Source of the DNA: Candidatus Saccharimonadales bacterium
GTDB taxonomy: Bacteria; Patescibacteriota; Saccharimonadia; Saccharimonadales; EFPC-124
Assembly: GCA_035710125.1 (NCBI GenBank)
Contig: DASTDY010000070.1
Coordinates: 25,396-89,395, forward strand
DNA length: 64,000 nt
Direction of reading: 5' to 3'
Shown here: positions 28,470-38,036 of the stretch, piece after piece
How positions within the stretch are numbered: position 1 is the first letter of the stretch
How the letters are laid out: every line of letters starts with the position of its first letter
Notes under the pieces: model-generated
Database searches by the model: none
What the model saw: only the letters and a program-made list of their open reading frames with translations
Told to the model about the DNA's origin: nothing
Program-made: the position numbers and the translations under genes

Positions 28470-31400
28470 TTACAGTGCGGTGTTCATATCTGTTTGGATT
28501 TCTGACTGGTTAAGCGCACGGTTATACACGCGGATTTCATCAAGCTGGCCGGCAAAATATTCGCCCCACACGGCGTTACCGCCAAATTTGAGCGGATTCG
28601 TAGATGTGTACAGATTGCCTGTGGTGGCCTGTGTCTTTACAAGCACACCATTTACATATAGCCGCATATTTGTGCCGTCATACGTAGTCGCCAAGTGGGT
28701 CCAGGTGTTGAGCGCAAGCCCAGAAGTACCAGTCACAGATTTAGAGCTGCCCGAAGTTGGATTAGTGCGCAGCCACCCAGACGGCCGGTTAGTACTTTCG
28801 CGGGCGTACAGTGCATAGGCAAGCTCGCTCCCGTTTTCTTTTAGCATCACCGTGCGCCAACCCGAATTTGCAGTTGGACGTACCCAGGCTTCAAGGGTAA
28901 AGCGGTTAAGGTCAAGGCTGTTGGAATCTGGCACGCTTACGTAGTCGTTCGTACCATCGAACGCAAGCGCCTTGCCAAACTTGCCAGCCGCATACCAAGT
29001 GGCCTGGAATATGCTGCCGTGGTTGCCATTACCAGACTGGTCCGAAACAGCGCTGCCCGAGCCTTCATTAAAGCCATAAGATGCAACTAAGCCACCGCCG
29101 CCCGTGTTATTAACAGTTACGGTTACCGCAGACGAAATAGTTACATTACCTGCCGCATCGCGCGCCACCGCAGTAAGCGAGTGGCTACCATTACTCACAG
29201 ATTGCGTGCTCCACGAAGCGCTAAAGGGGCTACTTGTGTCTTCCGGTCCTACATTAGTACCATCTACTTTAAACTGTACACCAGCTACGCCCACATTGTC
29301 TGACGCGTTAGCAGTCACGGTAATCGTACCGCTCACAGTGCTACCATTTGCGGGTGACGTCATTGTTATGGCCGGCGCTTGCGTGTCGGGAATTGTGGTG
29401 GTAAACGTCATGTCGCCAGATGTTGCTAAGTTTCCGGCTGCGTCGCGGCTTTTAACGCGGTAATGGTAAAGTGTGCCTGTGGTTAGCCCCGTAAGTTGCT
29501 GCGAGTGCGCAGTAACAAGGGCGGTATTGAGCGTAGTAGAGGATCCGTAAGAGGTGGTAGTGCCGTATTCTATTTGGGAATCAGCAGTTTCATTGGTATT
29601 CCAAGTTATTGTTGCGGAGTTACTTGTAATATTTGTAGATTGAATATCGCTAACCGCGGGGGCGGTGGTGTCAGGGCTGCCTAGGCGTACAATTTTAGCT
29701 TCCGATGGCACGCCGCGGCTATCTACAATAAAGACCATGTAGTGGTTATCGGGGGCTAAATTTGCATTCGCGGGGGTATTTACCGTTATGGTGTCGCCGT
29801 TTTGGGTGAATGGCAATTCCATAAAATGCTGGTTCCAGTCGGTGGCATGAGTAACAGAGGCTAATGTAGACATTGTAACCTTACTTACATCTGCCGCATT
29901 AGGGGAGGTGAGATTCATGGTAGCGTTGTGCTGGATATTAGTTGGTGCGCTCGTAATGGTTGGCCGCGCACCTTGGAACATGTATGGCGGAGAGTAAATC
30001 TGTGCATTTAATTGGTCGCTCGCAGGAGATAGCCGCCCGCCGCCCGACGACAAAACACGGCCGTCAGGCAACAAAATTGAAACCGAGTGGTACATACGTG
30101 GCTTCGCAGGCGCCGCCATCTGCGACCAGCTATTTGTTGCAGGATCCCACTGTTCTGCCGTGACGGTAGCTTTTTGCTCGCGGGCAAAGTCGCTCACAAT
30201 GGTTGCACCACCTATGGCCAAAGCCTTGCCAGTAGGCAGCATGGTAACGTTATGGAAAGAACGGCCTTGGTTCATATCGCCACCGTTACTCCATACTGGC
30301 GAGCCGCTGGTCATGTCGAGTATTCTTGTGGTTCTTTGTGAGTCCACAGCATTAGGGTCGTCTGGCATGTCGTGGTAGTCGTTAAATGTGAGGCCGCCGC
30401 CGGTAATTAAGTACTTGCCTGGCGCAAATGACGTCCACACACCATACGGACGCTCAGAAGTCCCAACCCGTTGCCACGTAGAGTTAGCGGGATCGTAAAT
30501 CATAACACCGCCATGTTCGGCCGAAATAGACATAATTTTGCCAGACGGGAGCAGCGTAGTTTGCGGATACTGGATCTCGGCAAGCTCAGGGGTGGTAAAC
30601 GGCAGCTGGGTTATAGTGTTGCTTATAGGATTAAAAATCTCTGGCGTATTAGAAAAACTACCGTTAACAGATTGTCCGCTAAAAGTGACCATGCGGTTGT
30701 CGGCCATTTGCGTCACACTCGGGTACCACCTGGCAAAACCCATGTCTGGCCGACGGGTCCAGCTCTTTGTGATAGGGCTAAAGGTGTACACCGTTTTTGT
30801 ACCGAGCGTGCCGCTAAAGGAATGCCCGCCCATTACCACAAGTTCGCCGTTAGAACCCGTAGCTTGGCCAGCACAAAACAATTCGCTGTTTGGAACACTG
30901 AGAGGCACGTTTGTCCAGGTGTTCGTAACGTAGTTCCAAAGCTTTGCGTTTGTAATGGCCGAATCTTCCCAGGCGTCCCACATTAATATTTCGCCGGTGT
31001 GGAACAGCGTTGCATGCACCGAAACAAGCGGCCAGTCCATGGTCTGGCTCCACTCACCAAGCACAGCGCGCGGGTCGGAATTTTGCACAGTTATGGTAAT
31101 GGGGGCCGACGTGGTTTGGTTCAAAGAATCACGGGCGCGGGCGGTGAGGGTATGCGTGCCATTGCTCACAGGCTGCGTGTTCCAGCTCACGCTATAGGGC
31201 GCGGTTGTGTCTTCGCTTCCCAGTGCGGTGCCATCTAGTAAAAACTGGACCCCGAGCAGGCTGGTCTCGTCTGCGGCGTCGGCAGTGACAACCACCGTAT
31301 TTTGTACCGTCGAATTGTTGGCAGGGGAGGTAACCGACACAGTGGGCGGGGTAGTATCGGGGGCGGTAGTACTAAACGAAAGAGTGCCGCCCGAGCCTGC

Positions 31401-32795
31401 AATCTCGGCGTGAGCACCGTCGGCAACTATAAATTCAAGCGAGTGGGCGCCGCCAGGGACGTCTAATAATGTATACGACTGGTCGCCGTCAGCATTGAGG
31501 TCCATTTTAGTGGGGCCGCCATCTAGCCTAAAATGGGCGTGTTTGCCATTTGTCCAATCGCCAGCGCGCGTATATGTTATTGTCACGTTGGTAGCTGCAA
31601 CATTCTGCCCCGCAGTTGGCTGGGTGATGGCAAGTTTTGATGGATTATTAGTAGTTACGTTAACGGGCGAGCTGGTTGTGACATTGCCCGTGGTATCAGT
31701 CGCTACGGCTGTAATCGTATGGGCTCCATCGAACAAGTTAGCAGTATCCCAACTCACACTGTAAGGCGCGGTTGTATCGGCAGCGCCGAGGTTATTGTTA
31801 CCAAGCTTAAACTGGACACTCGCTATTGCATTGTCGTCTGTAGCATCGGCCGTGATAGATACCTGGCCCGATACAACCGACGTATCGGCCGGACTGGTTA
31901 TGTTTACTGCGGGCGGCGTGATGTCATTCACAAATGAGGCGTACATAGAAAACGTTACATTTTGCCCTGTAAACGACCCAAACGAAGCCGGCCATGTGCC
32001 AAAAATTTGGCCACTCGAGCTCCAGCCGCTTACGCCGCCATCTGCATAATGCATATTGTTCACACTCGAGCTGGTCCCATTAGTGTTATAGGCAATAAAA
32101 TAGCTCGTGTTTGGTGCGAGCGTGGCAGTTATGGGCAGCGTATTCCAACTATTTGCCACAAGCGTTCCGCTTGCGGTGCTGGCAATTAATGCACCAGGCA
32201 CACTACCGTTGGCGGCATAAAGCGCGAGCTGAAAACTGCGGTTACCAAGCGATGGGTCTACCGCACCCACATGCACAGAAAGCGAGGCGACTTTGCCTCC
32301 TGCCACGGTAGTAAACCGGCTCGCGTTCATTGTGTTTGAGTTAGAGCTATCAGTAGAAGAGCCAGGAGTGGTGGTGCCGAGCGGCGTTATAAAAGTCCGG
32401 TTTTGCGACAAAGCTAAATCGCCCGACGAATCACGGCTTTTTACTCGGTAATTATAAAGTTGGTTGGCTACCAAGCCGGTAATTTGCTGGCTGTGGCTTG
32501 TGACAAGCTGGGTGTTTAGTGTGGTGGAAGACCCATAGGCGGTTGTGGTGCCGTAATCAATCTGGGTGTCTGCCGGAATGTCGGTAGTCCAATTTACCGT
32601 CGCGCCCGACGTGGTCAAATTAGAAGTTGCAACACCGCTAATAACAGGGGTAGCAGCATTAGCCGAGGTAAGAATAAAAAGCGAAACAATCAAACAGGCA
32701 ACAACACATGCTGCGACGATCCTGAATAACGGAGTAGTGATCAGCCGTAGGATAGATGCCGCATATATACGCATATTGGTCCTTAAGCTCATCAT
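28470..32795 (-). CDS. Giant (1441 aa) secreted multidomain protein: FN3/Ig-like repeats + glyoxal/galactose-oxidase-like kelch beta-propeller (+DUF1929-like) + FN3/Ig repeats + C-terminal LamG (concanavalin A-like, Laminin_G_3) domain
   Basis: N-terminal TM/signal. Repeated ATV(N)WTT...DYGTTTAYGSSTT FN3-like blocks. Central WSQTMDWPLVSVHATLFHTGEILMWDAWEDS...GGHSFSG...WYPS... matches glyoxal-oxidase N-terminal propellers. The C-terminus GNHGSI...GKALAFDGTNDYVSVPD...FTLEAWVRP...WTHLATTYDGTNMRLYVNGVL...GQLDEIRVYNRALNQSEIQ is classic LamG_3. Confidence 0.7.
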   Translation of the reverse strand: MMSLRTNMRIYAASILRLITTPLFRIVAACVVACLIVSLFILTSANAATPVISGVATSNLTTSGATVNWTTDIPADTQIDYGTTTAYGSSTTLNTQLVTSHSQQITGLVANQLYNYRVKSRDSSGDLALSQNRTFITPLGTTTPGSSTDSSNSNTMNASRFTTVAGGKVASLSVHVGAVDPSLGNRSFQLALYAANGSVPGALIASTASGTLVANSWNTLPITATLAPNTSYFIAYNTNGTSSSVNNMHYADGGVSGWSSSGQIFGTWPASFGSFTGQNVTFSMYASFVNDITPPAVNITSPADTSVVSGQVSITADATDDNAIASVQFKLGNNNLGAADTTAPYSVSWDTANLFDGAHTITAVATDTTGNVTTSSPVNVTTNNPSKLAITQPTAGQNVAATNVTITYTRAGDWTNGKHAHFRLDGGPTKMDLNADGDQSYTLLDVPGGAHSLEFIVADGAHAEIAGSGGTLSFSTTAPDTTPPTVSVTSPANNSTVQNTVVVTADAADETSLLGVQFLLDGTALGSEDTTAPYSVSWNTQPVSNGTHTLTARARDSLNQTTSAPITITVQNSDPRAVLGEWSQTMDWPLVSVHATLFHTGEILMWDAWEDSAITNAKLWNYVTNTWTNVPLSVPNSELFCAGQATGSNGELVVMGGHSFSGTLGTKTVYTFSPITKSWTRRPDMGFARWYPSVTQMADNRMVTFSGQSVNGSFSNTPEIFNPISNTITQLPFTTPELAEIQYPQTTLLPSGKIMSISAEHGGVMIYDPANSTWQRVGTSERPYGVWTSFAPGKYLITGGGLTFNDYHDMPDDPNAVDSQRTTRILDMTSGSPVWSNGGDMNQGRSFHNVTMLPTGKALAIGGATIVSDFAREQKATVTAEQWDPATNSWSQMAAPAKPRMYHSVSILLPDGRVLSSGGGRLSPASDQLNAQIYSPPYMFQGARPTITSAPTNIQHNATMNLTSPNAADVSKVTMSTLASVTHATDWNQHFMELPFTQNGDTITVNTPANANLAPDNHYMVFIVDSRGVPSEAKIVRLGSPDTTAPAVSDIQSTNITSNSATITWNTNETADSQIEYGTTTSYGSSTTLNTALVTAHSQQLTGLTTGTLYHYRVKSRDAAGNLATSGDMTFTTTIPDTQAPAITMTSPANGSTVSGTITVTANASDNVGVAGVQFKVDGTNVGPEDTSSPFSASWSTQSVSNGSHSLTAVARDAAGNVTISSAVTVTVNNTGGGGLVASYGFNEGSGSAVSDQSGNGNHGSIFQATWYAAGKFGKALAFDGTNDYVSVPDSNSLDLNRFTLEAWVRPTANSGWRTVMLKENGSELAYALYARESTNRPSGWLRTNPTSGSSKSVTGTSGLALNTWTHLATTYDGTNMRLYVNGVLVKTQATTGNLYTSTNPLKFGGNAVWGEYFAGQLDEIRVYNRALNQSEIQTDMNTAL

Positions 32796-32918
32796 AGTGC
32801 AAGAAACTTACAATAACAATAAAAAAGTTAAAAATGCCGCAATCTTTACTTTAAAAATTGCCCAGAAGAGGACTAGGCTTTTAAGAGCCTGTGCCATCGA
32901 TGGATTACGTTGGTTATC

Positions 32919-34142
32919 CTAGCCGTGCTTAACTTTAGAAACGGTAAGAATGTATTCTCGGCTGTCGGTTTGGCTTGAATGGAGTAGGTAGAAATCGTTG
33001 CGGTCAAATTGCTCGTTAACGTCGGCGGCGGTTTGCTGGAGACCTCGCCATGTCAGAATAGTGTCACCTTTATTAAAATGTATCGGACGTTCTCCGTCCT
33101 CAAACTTGAGCTTAATAGTAAGCGACACGTTCAGACGAATTTGCTCAAACCGCTGTTTAAGTTTGGGATCATACCCCAACTCAACTTTGTAGTATGTGCT
33201 GTCTATGCCCAAAAGGTTTACAACAAGTCCGTGTATTGCAGCTAGCCGCGTTTCACCTGGTTTTAGGTCAAAATCAAAAAAGCTTCGGGTGGCTTCTGTA
33301 TCAAGCTTTGTAGAGTGAATAAGGATATCGTTAATACCCATGCTGTCATGGATAATTTTAAGTCCACTGTCTGGTTTTCGCATGTTTGAGAGCGTGCCAC
33401 CAAGCAGCAAAACTAGATTAACAGTTTCCTTAGCGTCACTTTGTGCGTACTCCCGAATAAAAAGGTCAGAAAAACGGTCATAATTTATATCGTGTTCATA
33501 ACCTTCAAAAGCAACAGTGTCACCAAACCATTTTTTTATATTGATACGGGCGATAGCCAACATAGTTGGGCTCACATCCAGGGCGATATACCGACCCAAT
33601 TTTTTAGCGTCTAGAAGGTGAGTGAGCAGCCCTTTTACTGGATATGCATTACCCACACCGACATCAATAACATTTACTCGTTTATAGCGGTCGAGCAGGT
33701 TATCTATATAGCTCTGGTTAGCCTTGAGAAGCCTTACAGTGCTGTTAACAAGGTTGGGTGACTCTTCACCATCGAGGCGTTCTGCATATTTATCCCAATA
33801 ATTAGCACCGCCATCAAAATAATTGTATTGGCGTGGAATCTCATGATGGATTTCTAGGTTGGTTGCGATATCAAAAATCTGCTTCTGGCTGTATGTCTCA
33901 TAAAACTCAGGCAAAGGTTCAACTGTTTTAATCGCAATGGAGTTGCGGTACTTGCGCCTGCTTTCGGTTAGCTCGGAGAGCATATCAATGTTTCTTGCGA
34001 TATTTGCAACATATAGCTTATCGCCCTCACGATGGAGTGTAAGGTCTAATTTGCCCTCTCGGGTCTCGTCGATCCAGTTATGAACTGTTCTAAGAGATAC
34101 AGCGTACTTTTTGGCGAGATCACTATGTTTAAAATAAAGCAT
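32919..34142 (-). CDS. HTH (excisionase/MerR-like) domain fused to an EgtD-like SAM-dependent methyltransferase (Methyltransf_33 family), in an AT-rich islet
   Basis: N-terminus LYFKHSDLAKKYAVSLRTVHNWIDE (HTH). Then YNYFDGGANYWDKYAERLD...ESPNL (cf. EgtD YFYDerGSeLFEqIt.lPEYY), VIDVGVGNAYPVKGLLTHL (cf. LVELGSGss.Ktr.LL), RYIALDVS (cf. YvPvDIS) and LLLGGTLSNM (cf. GSTIGNf). About 40% GC. Confidence 0.5.
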   Translation of the reverse strand: MLYFKHSDLAKKYAVSLRTVHNWIDETREGKLDLTLHREGDKLYVANIARNIDMLSELTESRRKYRNSIAIKTVEPLPEFYETYSQKQIFDIATNLEIHHEIPRQYNYFDGGANYWDKYAERLDGEESPNLVNSTVRLLKANQSYIDNLLDRYKRVNVIDVGVGNAYPVKGLLTHLLDAKKLGRYIALDVSPTMLAIARINIKKWFGDTVAFEGYEHDINYDRFSDLFIREYAQSDAKETVNLVLLLGGTLSNMRKPDSGLKIIHDSMGINDILIHSTKLDTEATRSFFDFDLKPGETRLAAIHGLVVNLLGIDSTYYKVELGYDPKLKQRFEQIRLNVSLTIKLKFEDGERPIHFNKGDTILTWRGLQQTAADVNEQFDRNDFYLLHSSQTDSREYILTVSKVKHG

Positions 34143-34236
34143 ATTCCTATTAATTCTTCACAACTTTACTAATTTAATATCTTGTATGTTTCACATTTGC
34201 TATGTTAACATAAGATTAAGAGTTAATACTACTGGT

Positions 34237-34262
34237 AATCGTATCAGCTACAAATCGTATCA
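34237..34262. promoter_or_regulatory. 10-bp direct repeat aatcgtatca x2 (34237-34246, 34253-34262) in the divergent promoter region between the HTH-methyltransferase and the small ORF
   Basis: Read directly. A 16-bp centre-to-centre spacing is compatible with an operator for the HTH domain (inference). Confidence 0.25.
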
Positions 34263-34329
34263 TCTCTACCACCTTTGTTCAAGGTGCTGTGAACGTTGAA
34301 ACCATTTAAAGCAAAGTGAGGAATGTTAT

Positions 34330-34623
34330 ATGTCAACCGACACCATAAACGCAAACACACAACAACTACAGTGTAAACCCGCTCAATATCCGATTGCCGA
34401 AATAGAGATCGCCCCTCACGAGAATTCATTAGTGGTATTAAATACATACGAAGATAAAAAACAACCAAAAGGCTTTTGTGTAGAGTTTGAACAAGATGTT
34501 GATACAGAAGAGCTTGTAAAAGTAGAAGTTTTTACCCGCGATGTAAAAGGCGGGTTCCAATATCTGCTTTCTGTTGTTAACAAAACTAGCCAAACGCTGG
34601 GTATTGGCGTAAGCGTTCTTTAA
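34330..34623 (+). CDS. Hypothetical small protein (97 aa), AT-rich islet
   Basis: ORF MSTDTINANTQQLQCKPAQYPIAEIEIAPHENSLVVLNTYEDKKQPKGF... preceded by a GAGG-type RBS (aagtgaggaatgttatATG). No family recognised. Confidence 0.35.
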   Translation: MSTDTINANTQQLQCKPAQYPIAEIEIAPHENSLVVLNTYEDKKQPKGFCVEFEQDVDTEELVKVEVFTRDVKGGFQYLLSVVNKTSQTLGIGVSVL

Positions 34624-34683
34624 ATAAAAGAGGGCCCCAGAAGGGGCGCAGACAGAGTTCGTCTGACAGCCTCTTTTGGGGCG

Positions 34684-35064
34684 CTAGCGGTGACGCCTGT
34701 GACCACGGTCGTAGGACGTCCCCTCGGCTTCTTCCACCTCTTCGAGTTCGTCCCTGAGCTTCTTGAGCTCGGCCTCGAACTCCTCGACGAACGCCATCTG
34801 GAACGGCGCTGCCTCGAGCTGGGCCAGCAGGGCCGGACGGTCGAGGCACTCGGCCGCCTTGCTGCCCGGTTGCACACCGTCGAGCTGCGCCTTGATGAGC
34901 TCGTACGAGTCCATGGCCTTCTTGAGTCGATCGGACAACGCCTGTAACGTCCGCGCCTCGCGGTCGCTGTCGGCCTGGACCTCGGCGAAGGTCTTTTCGT
35001 CGCCTCCAGGGGGAAGCGAGCTGCCGATTGCACGAAGCGCGGCGAGCACATTGCTGTCGAGCAT
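34684..35064 (-). CDS. Hypothetical alpha-helical acidic protein; last gene of a four-gene high-GC operon
   Basis: 126-aa ORF at about 65% GC, E/A/L-rich. Same strand as the three upstream ORFs. Upstream RBS-like GGAG noted. Confidence 0.35.
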   Translation of the reverse strand: MLDSNVLAALRAIGSSLPPGGDEKTFAEVQADSDREARTLQALSDRLKKAMDSYELIKAQLDGVQPGSKAAECLDRPALLAQLEAAPFQMAFVEEFEAELKKLRDELEEVEEAEGTSYDRGHRRHR

Positions 35065-35247
35065 CTGCGGATCCTTAGTTCTCAGAGAGTGGATTTTGCA
35101 ATTACATGCCCCAATATTATAAATTCTATATACAGATCTGTCAAGAGTTGTTTATATAAAACACCCCTGGTTTAAACCCACACTTTCATTAAAAGAAGAG
35201 TGGGTCTGGGGCAGCGACTAACTGCCCCAGGAACCCGCGTTACCTTG

Positions 35248-36078
35248 CTATACAGCCCTGAGTTTTTTGCTTGCTTTGCTAACGAGCTTCTTTGCAGATG
35301 CGATCCCTGCTTTAATGTCGCTCGTGTCAGAAAACTTGCCGGCCTCTTTGTGCGCCTGTTTGGATGTAGCGGCGACACTCTCTAGATCGCTCGCGTCGGG
35401 CAATGAATCGGATGACTCTAGGTCTACTGCTTGCAGCTGCGACAGCACGGTGTCGAGTGGCGTGCTGTCTGGCACCTCGAAGGTGCTGATCATGCCCTTG
35501 CATTCGCCAATCTTGTCGCACGCAGCCGAAACACCGCCATGAGCGTTTTCGACTGCCTTGCTGGCAATCTCAGTCCGATCTCGGATTTTCTCGGCTGGCG
35601 GCAAGGCTGGATGTTTTGGCCCGAGTTCTTCCTCGAGCCTTTTACGGCGGCTCTCGGCCTCTTGGAGCAGTCCAGATGCCTTGCTCGCAGCATCGCCGAT
35701 TATCCCGGCGCATCCATCATCTGAACCTGCACCCACCGCAGCCGAAAGCTGCTTTGCATCTTCTAAGGCCTTCTGGCGATACTGCTTTGCCAACCGGAGC
35801 CCTTCTTTTGCCCCAGCTACTACCCGAATCACTTCTTCGAATAAAGATCTGGCTCTAGCCTGGGCTGCATCGTCTGCCTGGCTGCGTAGAGTGGCGATTT
35901 CTTTCAGGTTTTCTACCACGGTCACCAGCGGAGTGCAGACATCTTCGAGAGTGTTTTCTAGCAGCGCAACCGAAGACTTTAAGGGCAACACCTGATCGAG
36001 CGCACCGTTGAGCTTCTGGGCTGCACCTTCGAGCTTACCGGCAAGTTGCTTCGTCTGAGACCGCACAGATTCAGTCAT
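35248..36078 (-). CDS. Hypothetical coiled-coil protein (A/E/K/L-rich); third gene of the high-GC operon
   Basis: 276-aa ORF. Its start overlaps the upstream ORF by 8 nt (36071-36078), indicating operon coupling. No motif recognised. Confidence 0.4.
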   Translation of the reverse strand: MTESVRSQTKQLAGKLEGAAQKLNGALDQVLPLKSSVALLENTLEDVCTPLVTVVENLKEIATLRSQADDAAQARARSLFEEVIRVVAGAKEGLRLAKQYRQKALEDAKQLSAAVGAGSDDGCAGIIGDAASKASGLLQEAESRRKRLEEELGPKHPALPPAEKIRDRTEIASKAVENAHGGVSAACDKIGECKGMISTFEVPDSTPLDTVLSQLQAVDLESSDSLPDASDLESVAATSKQAHKEAGKFSDTSDIKAGIASAKKLVSKASKKLRAV

Positions 36079-36763
36079 CGAGCAACCCCACTACCTGTTT
36101 GGAGCCTTCTAGGTGACTAAGGACGGTTTTCATGTGGGTCTCGACAGGAAGGAGTTTCAATGCATCTTCCAGCGCTTTCACATCTCGCATAAAGCGCTTG
36201 AAATCATCGGTGAACGACTGTACGTCGCTACCCCTTGGCCGCCCAACTGCATCGATCTTCTCGACTACCTCTGCCATCGGAGCCTTTGCAGCCTCGGCCG
36301 CATCAAGCCCGGGTTGAAAAAAGTTGTCAGCCAATTGCTTTGCGAGCTTATACGTTATCCTTACCGGCGAAACTACATCCTCACCCAAGCCCTCTGCAAT
36401 CTGCAGGCTCGCCGTAGCAACCCCAGCAATGTCGTTGGTGCATTCAAGCAATTGCGTTTCGAAACACTGGCACAAGTCATGTAGGCGATCCACCTTGCCG
36501 TTGGCTTCGCCTCTCATTGAGACCAGCATGAGCATGAGTGTCTCAGACTCGTAGTCAGCTTTCTCTATCTTTGTTGTCTCGTCTATGTCGGACTCGAGTT
36601 TAGCAAGAAGGTTGCCCGCCCTTTCATGCATCTTGCCACAATGGCTAATGCAGGCCAAAAAAATCTTTCTGACTCCTTTTGCCATTTTCTCGGCGTCCTC
36701 GGTGCTTTCTTTCACAAACTTAAGTAGCTCGGGAAGAGAAACGGCTCGCCTAAAAATCGCCAC
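36071..36763 (-). CDS. Hypothetical protein; second gene of the high-GC operon
   Basis: 230-aa ORF with a Cys-containing segment (FLACISHCGKMHE...LCQCFETQLLEC). No family recognised. Confidence 0.4.
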   Translation of the reverse strand: MAIFRRAVSLPELLKFVKESTEDAEKMAKGVRKIFLACISHCGKMHERAGNLLAKLESDIDETTKIEKADYESETLMLMLVSMRGEANGKVDRLHDLCQCFETQLLECTNDIAGVATASLQIAEGLGEDVVSPVRITYKLAKQLADNFFQPGLDAAEAAKAPMAEVVEKIDAVGRPRGSDVQSFTDDFKRFMRDVKALEDALKLLPVETHMKTVLSHLEGSKQVVGLLDD

Positions 36764-36905
36764 AAAACCCCCTAAAGGTGCAAGGAACGTATGCTACTGT
36801 ACCACAATTTTAGTGCTGCTGCTGTAGTCTGCCTAAAGCGGCGAAAATCGTCGCATTAGGCAGACCCCAGAGCCTCACACAGCGGGTGTGAGGCTCTGGT
36901 TGTGG

Positions 36906-38036
36906 TCAGACCGACTTCTGGTGCGAGAGGAGTTCACAGCTTGCAGGCTCCACGGGTGAGGTGGTGGGGGAGAGGGGCACGTTGTAGATCTTCATGCCAG
37001 GCACCATGGTGCTCGGCAGACCCTTCAGCTGCGCCTCGTGGACCATCACTTCCATGTTCGCCGACAGTGGTTCGCCGGAGTGCCGCAGCACGATCGTCTC
37101 AGCGTTGGGACGCCAGACGACCACCTGCTGCACGCCGTCTTCCCGCTGCTCCACACGCGCGAAGTGCCAGCCACGCCGCGTGAACAGCTCATGAACCGGG
37201 CTCTCCTTGATGAGCACGTGGGCGTAGTCGCGGTTGGACTGGACTGCCCCTTCCGTCAACAGGCGGTACACCTGGACCGCCAGATCAGGACGAAGGTCGA
37301 GCAGCTTGTCGATGGGCTCGAGGAGCTCGTCGACGTTCTGGCTACGAGTGGCCAAGATCGCTCCGTAAAGCCTCAGACCGAGACTGTTGAGCGCCATGCG
37401 CGCGGCCAGCTTGATGCCGTCGAACGGCCCCAGCTTCTTGACGTGGAACAACGCCACGTTCAGCTGGTACGGCGATTCGATCGTCCGCAGGTAGCGCAGG
37501 GCGAGCATCTGGAGTTCCGTGATGCTCGACAACGCCGCGGACTCGTCGCCGCCAGACAGGGCCACGAAACGCCGCTGCATGCTGTTGTGGGCGTTGGCGC
37601 TGAGCACCGCCGACGGGTCGTCGGTGGCCATGCGCTTCACGAACTCGAACAGCCCGCTGTACGTGCCCACGAAACACTGCGCGGTTTCATCGAGCCAGAA
37701 CGCGCGGCGGTGCAGGTGGCTGGTGTCGTACCCGAAGCACAGGGCTTCCAGGAACGAACCGATGTCTGCAGCACTCCAGCCGGCGCGGATCAGGACACCA
37801 ACGTAGGGCAAACCCACGGGGTCGCCTTGGCCGTCGAAGTCCAGGTAGTTGCGCGCGATGCGCAACAGCGCCTCACGGCCTACGCCGTGGACCAACGCGT
37901 GGGCGAAGTAGGTGCCCACGGGGGTGCCATGCGGTAGGCTTTCCGGCTGGACGCCGTCCGGTCTACCCTCCAAAGTTGCTGTCATGACGCACTCCTTTTG
38001 TGCAATCCGTATTCCTGAAAAAGGACGAGTACGCAA
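36906..38036 (-). CDS. Hypothetical protein; first gene of the high-GC operon (likely start at MTATLEGR, ~37986)
   Basis: 376-aa ORF at about 65% GC. The antisense ORF 37038-37937 is R-rich junk. No family recognised. Confidence 0.4.
   Translation of the reverse strand: MRTRPFSGIRIAQKECVMTATLEGRPDGVQPESLPHGTPVGTYFAHALVHGVGREALLRIARNYLDFDGQGDPVGLPYVGVLIRAGWSAADIGSFLEALCFGYDTSHLHRRAFWLDETAQCFVGTYSGLFEFVKRMATDDPSAVLSANAHNSMQRRFVALSGGDESAALSSITELQMLALRYLRTIESPYQLNVALFHVKKLGPFDGIKLAARMALNSLGLRLYGAILATRSQNVDELLEPIDKLLDLRPDLAVQVYRLLTEGAVQSNRDYAHVLIKESPVHELFTRRGWHFARVEQREDGVQQVVVWRPNAETIVLRHSGEPLSANMEVMVHEAQLKGLPSTMVPGMKIYNVPLSPTTSPVEPASCELLSHQKSV

Follow-up and report, generated by a model that had tools for sequence, protein, structure and literature searches.

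A horizontally mobile two-gene cassette, mostly of Saccharibacteria, encodes a predicted winged helix-turn-helix fused to an EgtD-fold methyltransferase

A 64,000-nucleotide stretch of DNA from a Candidatus Saccharimonadales bacterium (GenBank assembly GCA_035710125.1, contig DASTDY010000070.1, positions 25,396 to 89,395 of the forward strand) contains a self-contained, horizontally mobile two-gene cassette that is found mostly in Saccharibacteria. We refer to the whole stretch as the window, and number positions from its first nucleotide. One gene of the cassette encodes a protein of 407 amino acids (aa) in which a predicted N-terminal winged helix-turn-helix (wHTH) is tethered to a methyltransferase having the fold of EgtD; the other, read divergently, encodes a partner protein of 97 aa. 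Between the two genes lies a control region with dyads and promoter-like boxes that are conserved across phyla. The large protein has the EgtD fold yet is not an EgtD, and it may combine the roles of enzyme and regulator. A literature search found nothing on a fusion of a helix-turn-helix (HTH) with Methyltransf_33, or on such a cassette in Saccharibacteria, among open-access papers and preprints. The component kinds (the Methyltransf_33 fold, the winged HTH and the enzyme-regulator fusion) are known, while the assembled cassette, the partner family and the control region appear to be undescribed.

The fusion protein and its relationship to EgtD

The coding elements of the cassette are the following, where SAM is S-adenosylmethionine, ORF is open reading frame and pLDDT is the predicted local distance difference test score.

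32919 to 34142, minus strand: gene for the 407-aa fusion (wHTH, linker and EgtD-fold SAM methyltransferase), from the ORF, Pfam, homologues, AlphaFold model and fold search
32919 to 33932, minus strand: EgtD-fold methyltransferase body, residues 71–407 with the stop codon, from hhalign against EgtD with a bridge alignment (probability 99.85%)
33933 to 33959, minus strand: basic linker RRKYRN, residues 62–70, predicted to be disordered (pLDDT <50 for residues 62–69)
33960 to 34142, minus strand: N-terminal wHTH, residues 1–61, from AlphaFold topology and sub-threshold HTH-clan matches
34330 to 34623, plus strand: gene for the 97-aa partner, from the ORF, homologues at the same divergent position in ~28 loci and an AlphaFold model

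The two ORFs are separated by a spacer of 187 bp. An ORF joining an HTH to a methyltransferase, and a small divergent ORF, had been proposed at this location from the sequence without database searches (the original prediction); both are present, and the motifs quoted for the enzyme (YNYFDGG, VIDVGVGNA, RYIALDVS and LLGGTLSNM) all lie within the 407-aa ORF. The catalytic part was predicted to belong to Methyltransf_33 (PF10017), and it scores 45.5 bits with that profile against a gathering cutoff of 23 (E = 6.8e-12), aligning residues 100–400 with model positions 14–300 of 304. An AlphaFold model of the protein, calculated with 36 homologues, has a pLDDT of 89 and a predicted template modelling score (pTM) of 0.78. 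Its closest solved fold is EgtD (E = 3e-18, template modelling score 0.82 when normalised to EgtD), at ~15% sequence identity. Generic class-I methyltransferases rank after EgtD in the fold search, with E = 1e-12 or worse, and the N-methyltransferases that rank behind it include the peptide N-terminal methyltransferase CypM.

Is the protein then an EgtD? The NCBIfam equivalog for EgtD (TIGR03438) gives 23.3 bits against a cutoff of 290.9 and covers only model positions 53–154, and that for EasF (TIGR03439) gives 30.1 bits against 205.55. In searches of PDB sequences neither the single protein nor the family profile reached EgtD; this took the fold search together with a bridged hhalign. We used the M. 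smegmatis EgtD sequence as reference, verified against PDB 4PIM chain A, with the roles of the histidine-binding residues taken from PMC8593015. Against EgtD alone hhalign aligns the Rossmann core, matching G248, T250 and N253 to EgtD G161, T163 and N166, and a bridge of two cyanobacterial intermediates extends the alignment to residues 77–403. N253, the counterpart of the α-amine-binding N166, is invariant in the family, as is G248, and T250 is at least 90% conserved. In the bridged alignment Y39 and F47 of EgtD correspond to Y108 and W116, each invariant. The carboxylate contact Y206 becomes an invariant F289, and the second, S284, falls on G367, a variable position. The specificity residue E282 is replaced by an invariant W365, which is followed by an invariant R366, and M252 corresponds to I335. 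Y56 of the carboxylate clamp maps to a variable loop, and its alignment there is uncertain. The SAM motif D160-x-G162-x-G164, Asn253, Y108 and many residues of the pocket are invariant across sequences that are 55–77% identical.

Judged from these alignments, the 407-aa protein has an EgtD fold yet is not an EgtD, because its equivalog score fails the cutoff and Y206, E282 and S284 are replaced; the SAM and amine sites are retained, and the carboxylate clamp and the imidazole site are lost. Thus the description of an EgtD-like core holds for fold and Pfam family, and does not extend to the histidine-binding residues. Since the SAM motif and the amine-holding Asn are retained while the clamp and the histidine-specific Glu are not, the enzyme probably N-methylates an amine different from free histidine. 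No egtB/C/E-like gene and no FGE-sulfatase/DinB_2 gene occurs near the cassette in any of the locus contexts examined. The nearest relatives lacking the HTH are ~25% identical and are found in Nostoc and Calothrix, with uninformative neighbours. Two of these (loci L047 and L048) were considered as true EgtD references and rejected, scoring 67–77 bits against the cutoff of 291.

Six members of the family (P0001, the protein of the window, and P0021, P0041, P0107, P0116 and P0118) are labelled ‘L-histidine N(alpha)-methyltransferase’ by NCBI. For this family the name is almost certainly wrong, to judge by the residues and cutoffs above, and the over-specific label is probably spreading through the genomes of the candidate phyla radiation (CPR) and of actinomycetes. 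As a result, CPR bacteria could be wrongly predicted to make ergothioneine.

A DNA-targeted methyltransferase had also been suggested. This finds no support, as the fold is that of a small-molecule enzyme and there are no DNA-methyltransferase motifs or family matches. A scan of PADLOC-DB v2 returned only a weak match to mad2 (E = 1e-4), over residues 144–206 in the region of the SAM motif, and nothing for the partner or the neighbouring genes.

The N-terminal domain is modelled with the order β-α-α-β-β-α (strand 3–4, helices 6–12 and 17–28, strands 36–39 and 42–46, helix 49–61), with pLDDT 82–91. Across 30 members of the family the sub-threshold Pfam matches to this region belong nearly all to the HTH clan, being HTH_23 in 23 of the 30, HTH_17 in 14 (best E = 1.9e-4, still below threshold), HTH_28 in 13, HTH_29 in 12 and MerR in 6; the ArsR-type models HTH_5 and HTH_20 are not among them. 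The isolated domain of the window scores 21.4 bits with HTH_29 (cutoff 28.1) and 18.1 bits with HTH_23 (cutoff 24.6), and has no HTH_17 match. Weak PDB profile matches are also to HTH proteins, namely GerE, the excisionase-like phage protein Gp37 (4j2n) and 6ama/6amk. The domain is conserved to the same degree as the catalytic core, and W23, N47 and N51 are invariant. Of the excisionase- or MerR-type HTH that had been proposed, the fold and a consistent set of weak matches stand; the formal family assignment, with HTH_17 at its cutoff, does not. The long coiled-coil dimerisation helix of MerR-type proteins is absent from the AlphaFold model, in which helix 49–61 leads into the disordered linker and then the methyltransferase body. 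The linker is conserved although it is predicted to be disordered, K64 being invariant and R66 conserved in at least 90%.

The partner protein and the distribution of the cassette

How general is this arrangement? A word-indexed search found 700 homologues of the methyltransferase, uniformly of ~407 aa. The best 120 of the 700 are almost all of 405–412 aa, are 54–77% identical to the query over its full length, and all carry PF10017. The fusion, which had been viewed as a departure from stand-alone enzymes at one locus, is thus common to a large family. When one genome per species was scanned, 48 loci were found, most of them in metagenome-assembled genomes (MAGs) of Saccharimonadia; isolated copies occur in Nocardia, three Streptomyces, Actinomadura, a Limnocylindria MAG and a Bacillota MAG. 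Some genomes hold several copies, with three separate ones in SMAG_U6366 and two in SMAG_U15685, and the homologues P0078 and P0082 are on contigs of one listed length, 1,119,003 bp. A second paralogue stands in tandem just downstream in L017 (9252–10265), L026 (9979–11235), L029 (10055–11299) and L044 (2207–3436); that of L017 is missing the first ~70 residues, and hence the HTH.

The 97-aa protein had been called an orphan. A tblastn search followed by an iterated profile search over all ORFs finds a homologue in ~28 of the 41 loci with upstream sequence, actinomycete and Bacillota loci included, and this always lies immediately upstream of the methyltransferase start and is read from the other strand. 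Word-indexed searches with the partner gave only one protein and then 10, and exhaustive HMMER was required. Run against 1.84 billion representatives, this found 344 members of the family at E ≤1e-3, 84 of them at E ≤1e-10; the top 150 of the 344 are all stand-alone proteins of 68–146 aa. In the reverse direction, starting from partner homologues found by sequence alone, a divergent Methyltransf_33 gene of 407–412 aa adjoins in three of the three loci with enough flank, and likewise in L052. The co-occurrence that the original prediction proposed to look for is therefore found from both sides.

The partner is modelled by AlphaFold as a disordered tail of ~19 residues followed by a six-stranded all-β domain (pLDDT 78). 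A PDB search gave no significant relative (best E = 0.36), and Pfam, NCBIfam, PADLOC and PHROG gave no match. The N-terminal region varies in both sequence and length. The partner diverges far more rapidly than the methyltransferase, at a median pairwise identity of 30% against 50%. Two partner subfamilies can be distinguished, which track methyltransferase similarity to a modest but significant degree (51.9% vs 49.3%, 2 of 5000 permutations).

In three loci (L010, 6998–7694; L023, 6759–7461; L027, 6972–7758) a different divergent pair replaces the β partner, on the strand opposite to the methyltransferase. It comprises a Cys-rich ORF of ~90 aa, with a zinc-ribbon-like pattern C..C ... C..H, that overlaps an ORF of 160–175 aa. 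Neither ORF matches any family, Pfam included. L010 and L023 retain the conserved control region despite the different divergent gene.

The evidence for mobility lies in composition and context. The GC content of the window falls to 0.37–0.44 over 32.6–34.6 kb, against a mean of ~0.51, and this is its lowest-GC stretch; a block of 0.56–0.65 follows directly at 34.6–38 kb. The low-GC islet beside high-GC genes that had been described here is real, and it recurs, as the methyltransferase gene has a lower GC content than the rest of the locus in 42 of 42 loci. Values for gene and flank are 0.428 and 0.515 in the window, 0.475 and 0.59 in Nocardia, 0.48–0.51 and 0.59–0.60 in Streptomyces, and 0.51 and 0.63 in Actinomadura. 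A typical actinomycete genome has a GC content of ~0.70, well above that of the flanks of the actinomycete cassettes. The flanking genes vary between loci, and in the contexts examined the small ORF is the only recurrent neighbour. Because of the low GC content in every locus, the varying neighbours and the multiple and tandem copies, we conclude that the locus is a mobile cassette. The presence of low-GC cassette DNA in Streptomyces, Nocardia and Actinomadura, which belong to the same phylum as the known hosts of cultivated Saccharibacteria, suggests gene flow between epibiont and host.

No terminal repeats or transposon ends above chance were found around the cassette of the window. Genes for tRNA lie within ~1.5 kb in ~12 of the 41 loci, and this was rejected as a signal of integration, being not clearly above expectation for genomes of ~1 Mb. 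Particular tRNA genes recur within ~0.1–2 kb of the cassette, tRNA-Arg (ccg/tcg) near L013, L018, L020, L021, L043 and L054, and tRNA-Cys and tRNA-Leu (taa) near L016, L026 and L044; either insertion targeted to tRNA genes or synteny kept within one lineage might account for this. In the copy of Nocardia sp. CA-135953 (L001/L004, 5.22 Mb region) the partner is gone, as is the conserved control region. This copy comes after a ribonucleotide-reductase-like gene and a NUDIX gene, all on one strand, in an island whose genes include those for Xre-type HTH, Hypoth_Ymh, DUF6879/DUF5753 and DUF4096. In L002, L003, L052 and L054 too the cassette has NUDIX or HAD genes nearby.

The shared control region and the flanks of the cassette

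The spacer between the two genes contains a number of conserved elements. In the list IR denotes an inverted repeat and A4 an alignment of upstream regions.

34143 to 34329, no strand: shared control region, from k-mer enrichment, alignment A4, dyad covariation and promoter geometry in ~30 loci of several phyla
34182 to 34211, plus strand: putative small-ORF promoter TTGTAT-18-TAACAT, beside the methyltransferase start codon and directed towards the small ORF
34186 to 34211, no strand: IR3 dyad, ATGTTTCAC ... ATGTTAACAT (A4 columns 158–168 vs 174–183, 87.7% of cells paired)
34215 to 34227, no strand: weak AT-rich counterpart of IR2, ATTAA-GAG-TTAAT, where other loci have a GC-rich zero-gap palindrome that is absent in the window
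34237 to 34262, plus strand: direct repeat, two copies of AATCGTATCA with a period of 16 nt, a window-specific duplication of the IR1 half-site and −10 region
34247 to 34261, no strand: IR1 dyad in its window variant, GATAC-GATTT-GTAGC (A4 columns 64–68 vs 74–78, 78.5% of cells paired)
34254 to 34259, minus strand: putative −10 box TACGAT of the methyltransferase promoter, within the right copy of the 10-bp repeat
34277 to 34282, minus strand: putative −35 box TTGAAC of the methyltransferase promoter, from the hexamer match TTGAAC-17-TACGAT in the window

The sequence AACATGTC is present in 16 of 40 upstream regions, where the maximum in shuffled sequences is 9. Reading towards the methyltransferase the shared order is CTTGAA[GC]AA, then IR1 ~17 nt further on, a central IR2, and finally IR3, after which comes GTCAAC, ~30 nt before the ATG. 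The family consensus of IR1 is TGTTAC-N5-GTAAC, with GGTAC/GTACC as covariants, and IR3 has the form ATGTTAC...G[AT]AACAT, so that the two have a TGTTAC half-site in common. Together their cells are paired in 84.5%, compared with 75.4% in shuffles (0/500) and 25–50% in slid controls, and the covariation score is 0.28 compared with 0.15 (0/500). In IR3 six of nine pairs have changed on both sides.

IR2 is of a different kind, with conserved AGCA...TGCT arms around a variable centre. A zero-gap IR2 palindrome ranks first among the inverted repeats of 12 of 28 loci, compared with 13.9% in shuffles; the centre changes from one locus to the next (GCGC, TCGA, GTCGAC, CGATCG, ATCGAT, CAGCTG, CATATG, ACGT and AGATCT). 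Because the palindrome runs right through its centre, its symmetry is a property of the DNA. Relative to the methyltransferase ATG, examples lie at −71 to −56 (L031), −80 to −65 (L012) and −83 to −60 (L010), with 2–6 nt between the arms, and the element is near the putative start site of the small ORF.

Promoter-like boxes are found on both strands. Our promoter model rests on a sigma-70 scan across loci that was looser than the strict scan of the window. On the small-ORF strand TTGACA-18-TAACAT is the best match in ~20 loci, its −10 box ending 46–82 nt from the methyltransferase ATG. On the methyltransferase strand TTGAA[GC]-17-TAC[GC]NT, with a preceding TG, is the best match in ~17 loci, at −102 to −131. 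The candidate methyltransferase promoter is thus far from its own gene, and that of the small ORF adjoins the methyltransferase start codon. We infer that two conserved sigma-70-like promoters face each other, giving transcripts that would have some tens of nucleotides in common. The −10 box and start site of the putative methyltransferase promoter lie under IR1, and IR3 spans the spacer between the −35 and −10 boxes of that for the small ORF.

The direct repeat of 10 bp that the original prediction had noted in the shared promoter region is present exactly twice (34237–34246 and 34253–34262), the match extending to 13 nt with one mismatch. By our estimate ~0.03 such local repeats are expected per 187-bp AT-rich spacer, and a few per 64 kb; locally, then, it is not due to chance. 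Its reading as an operator-like site has to be given up, as the repeat is peculiar to the window, whereas the conserved elements are the inverted repeats and promoter boxes; no exact local repeat of at least 10 bp occurs in any of the 41 other upstream regions. We therefore rejected it as a conserved operator, in favour of a local duplication. In the methyltransferase sense it reads as two copies of TGATACGATT, and the upstream copy takes in the putative −10 box (TACGAT) together with the left IR1 arm of the window. Since a 13-nt insertion relative to the closest relatives, L006 and L008, creates the second copy, the coincidence of the repeat with a regulatory element reflects a lineage-specific duplication and not an operator of the family.

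The outer arms of IR3 (TGTTAC ... GTGAAACA) recall the halves of the chromosomal parS site (TGTTNCACGTGAAACA), with an insert of ~9 nt between them. An example is TGTTACATTTCATTGGTGAAACA in L015, and the same is seen at 34186–34211 in the window. The likeness is probably coincidental.

Outside the two genes the following elements flank the cassette.

32860 to 32878, minus strand: terminator-like hairpin with a T-run, downstream of the methyltransferase stop codon
34634 to 34647, no strand: GC-rich hairpin just 3′ of the small-ORF stop codon, with a T-run on the minus strand

These two terminator-like hairpins flank the gene pair, and that at 34634–34647 is possibly a shared or bidirectional terminator. 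The motif CCCAGAAG[AG]GG is found at both ends of the cassette (32861–32871 and 34636–34646), within the hairpins. About 30 chance matches of this quality are expected in the 2.8-kb stretch concerned, and its occurrence at both boundaries is probably coincidence, notable for its placement. The gene directly downstream of the cassette (28470–32795, minus strand) encodes 1441 aa, comprising a hydrophobic segment at the N-terminus, three Big_7 Ig domains, a Kelch or galactose-oxidase-like propeller accompanied by a GO-like E-set domain, fn3 domains and, at the C-terminus, a Laminin_G_3 domain. The product is probably a large protein of the surface or adhesin type. On the other side, at 34684–38036 (minus strand), are four co-directional ORFs of 126, 276, 230 and 376 aa with a GC content of up to 0.65 against ~0.51 for the window, and without a significant Pfam, PADLOC or PHROG match. 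As this block is as anomalous in composition as the cassette, in the opposite sense, the region 32.8–38 kb looks like a patchwork of foreign DNA.

Possible function and relation to known systems

What might the cassette do? We give about half our belief to the proposal that the fusion protein is a bifunctional enzyme-regulator. The wHTH would bind the TGTTAC dyads IR1 and IR3. Bound at IR1, over the −10 box and start site, the protein would repress its own promoter, and through IR3 it would control the promoter of the divergent cargo gene, usually that of the β protein. The SAM, S-adenosylhomocysteine (SAH) or substrate state of the EgtD-like domain would set the regulatory output, in the manner of a ‘trigger enzyme’. 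Self-regulation had been predicted, and it remains plausible because conserved dyads overlie the putative promoters; the direct repeat, through which it was supposed to act, has no part in it.

A number of observations weigh against this proposal. No HTH model passes its Pfam cutoff. The two TGTTAC dyads are spaced differently, by 5 nt and by 11–13 nt, which is awkward for one rigid dimer. The face-to-face arrangement is deduced from hexamer matches alone. The strict sigma-70 scan picked up no promoter within the window's spacer, and the −35 box of the window's small ORF (TTGTAT) matches at three of six positions, as it does in a subgroup comprising L006, L008, L009, L026, L031, L035 and L042. 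The central IR2 palindrome has no role in the model, and none of the alternatives explains it either. The partner is absent in about one-third of loci, and the correlation between methyltransferase and partner divergence is weak (Mantel r = 0.09, 109 of 2000 permutations). Lastly, the inner stem of IR3 covaries with a bias of G·U over A·C (23 vs 3 cells) on the methyltransferase-sense strand, a pattern that suits an RNA hairpin no less than an operator.

This last point leads to the possibility that the dyads of the spacer act mainly at the level of RNA, through overlapping convergent transcripts and leader hairpins that bring about antisense control or attenuation, the HTH binding elsewhere or nothing in the spacer. 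We regard this as a tentative alternative, towards which we do not lean, and the weight we give it overlaps with that of the enzyme-regulator. The inner pairs of IR3 vary among AU, CG, UA and GC, the hairpin is found by RNAalifold and in the minimum-energy fold of the window's leader as in most others, the leaders of L012, L031 and L017 have significant z-scores of −4.6, −3.0 and −2.1, and promoters that faced each other would give overlapping transcripts. Against this, stability relative to shuffles is inconsistent, with values of +0.67 in the window, +0.17 in L011 and +0.05 in L041, and with a range of −4.6 to +0.7 across loci we rejected the claim of a structured leader. The RNAalifold consensus has a free energy of only −2.3 kcal/mol, there is no Rfam family (no match inside 34143–34329 even at E up to 10), and the palindromic centre of IR2 in 12 of 28 loci is a property of DNA. 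The wobble bias was counted on A4, an unanchored hairpin search (49 vs 37) being too noisy to use; most of it comes from one column pair, and the sequences share ancestry. The divergent layout of regulator and target, and the way in which the control region accompanies the methyltransferase gene regardless of its cargo, would also suit a one-component regulator in which a non-catalytic EgtD-like domain has been recruited to sense SAM, SAH or an amino-acid derivative, and acts as transcription factor for the divergent gene. Such a protein might well lose the contacts to the substrate carboxylate and imidazole, and SahR, an autoregulating, SAH-responsive wHTH protein that binds a palindrome, provides a precedent (PMC4239095). 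We think it distinctly unlikely, since the invariance of the SAM motif, Asn253, Y108 and pocket residues at 55–77% identity is more typical of an active enzyme, and the whole EgtD substrate-binding domain is kept at high model confidence.

Other readings take the cassette itself as the unit of function. In a selfish or defence-type element, toxin-antitoxin-like or anti-phage, the methyltransferase would modify a cellular or invader target, the small protein would be antidote, sensor or specificity partner, and the HTH would serve tight autoregulation. Much of the distribution is what such an element might show: the low GC content in 42 of 42 loci, multiple and tandem copies in genomes of ~1 Mb, varying neighbours and spread across phyla, a partner that diverges faster than the enzyme or is swapped for a different gene pair, and a Nocardia copy among Xre-type HTH, Hypoth_Ymh and DUF4096 genes. 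Nevertheless we consider it unlikely. Neither protein has a meaningful PADLOC or PHROG match or resembles a known toxin or antitoxin fold, the genes are divergent and not in an operon, and a methyltransferase without its partner in about one-third of loci is unexpected for a neutralising pair. The small protein could alternatively be the substrate, methylated on its disordered tail or its α-amino group as one half of a protein modification pair, or one akin to those of ribosomally synthesized and post-translationally modified peptides. Loss of the carboxylate clamp with retention of the α-amine Asn would in principle let a peptide N-terminus fit, the tail has ~19 residues, the pairing is tight, and CypM is among the structural matches after EgtD. 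This we find highly improbable, as the N-terminal region is conserved in neither sequence nor length, the partner is a folded β domain and not a leader-core peptide, it is absent in about one-third of methyltransferase loci, and we know of no Methyltransf_33 member that acts on peptides. Hardest to credit is a true EgtD-type synthase of histidine or aromatic amino acid betaines with an added HTH, or an HTH-guided DNA methyltransferase. The Pfam membership, the fold and the name given by NCBI speak for the former; the equivalog scores (23 vs 291 bits, and 30 vs 206 for EasF), the replacement of Y206, E282 and S284 and the lack of an egtB/C/E-like neighbour all oppose it, and the latter has neither motifs nor family matches in its favour.

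A more speculative extension of the enzyme-regulator, which we judge improbable, is a bistable switch in which facing promoters make the enzyme-regulator and a diversifying β-sandwich protein mutually exclusive. It would be specific to Saccharibacteria and exchanged with actinomycetes, and would serve epibiont-host interaction or discrimination of self from non-self, for example through a methylated amine signal that is made or sensed. If true, this would be a new functional class of mobile module, and go beyond another regulator. Saccharibacteria have genomes of ~1 Mb with very little regulatory or biosynthetic capacity, yet many carry two to four copies of the cassette, and for this reason it likely matters for their biology. 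With its small size, its conservation across phyla and its many testable elements, the control region offers a system of regulation open to experiment in a lineage that has almost none.

The cassette can be compared with several known systems. With EgtD (PDB 4PIM, 4PIO, 4UY5) the large protein shares the two-domain fold, the Pfam family, the SAM motif, the α-amine site, the counterpart of Y39 and an aromatic residue at F47. It differs in its N-terminal wHTH and linker, the lack of egt neighbours, an identity of ~15%, and the replacement of Y206, S284 and E282 by F289, a variable position and the invariant pair W365-R366. Unlike type II toxin-antitoxin modules, the genes are divergent with a spacer of ~190 bp in every locus, and the 407-aa protein falls in no known toxin or antitoxin family.

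MerR-family operators sit between the −35 and −10 boxes. The IR3 dyad is similarly placed, in a putative promoter with a longer-than-optimal spacer, and the N-terminal β-α-α-β-β-α winged HTH with its weak MerR and HTH_17 matches adds to the likeness. The spacer is however 18 bp and not 19–20, the long coiled-coil is lacking, and the MerR Pfam models remain below threshold. Face-to-face promoter switches are known in coliphage 186 (pR/pL), P2 (Pe/Pc), pCF10 (PQ/PX) and IS10 (pIN/pOUT), where the layout gives transcriptional interference and mutually exclusive expression. The cassette would resemble these in its facing promoters, short overlap and operator-like dyads on both; it differs in that the layout is read from hexamers only, the regulator is an enzyme fusion, and there is no phage, plasmid or insertion sequence context. 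If the promoters truly face each other, this would be a rare chromosomal case of a switch design outside phages and plasmids.

The effector domain of SahR has a methyltransferase fold. Like the ArsR-family regulators SahR and SamR, the fusion protein pairs a wHTH with a SAM- or SAH-binding methyltransferase-like domain, and would share with them palindrome binding and autoregulation. The HTH of SahR is however of the ArsR type, its methyltransferase domain is not Methyltransf_33, and it controls metK, ahcY, metH and metF, where no metK, ahcY or metH is linked to the cassette in the contexts examined. The closest logic is perhaps that of the bifunctional enzyme-repressors BirA (the Group II biotin protein ligase), PutA and RbkR (PMC4016012 and PMC5397151). 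There too an N-terminal HTH or winged helix is tethered to a full enzyme, and ligand or catalytic state is expected to set promoter occupancy. They differ in catalytic fold and chemistry and regulate the genes of their own pathway, whereas the only conserved target of the cassette would be a small protein, and the cassette itself is mobile and often present in multiple copies.

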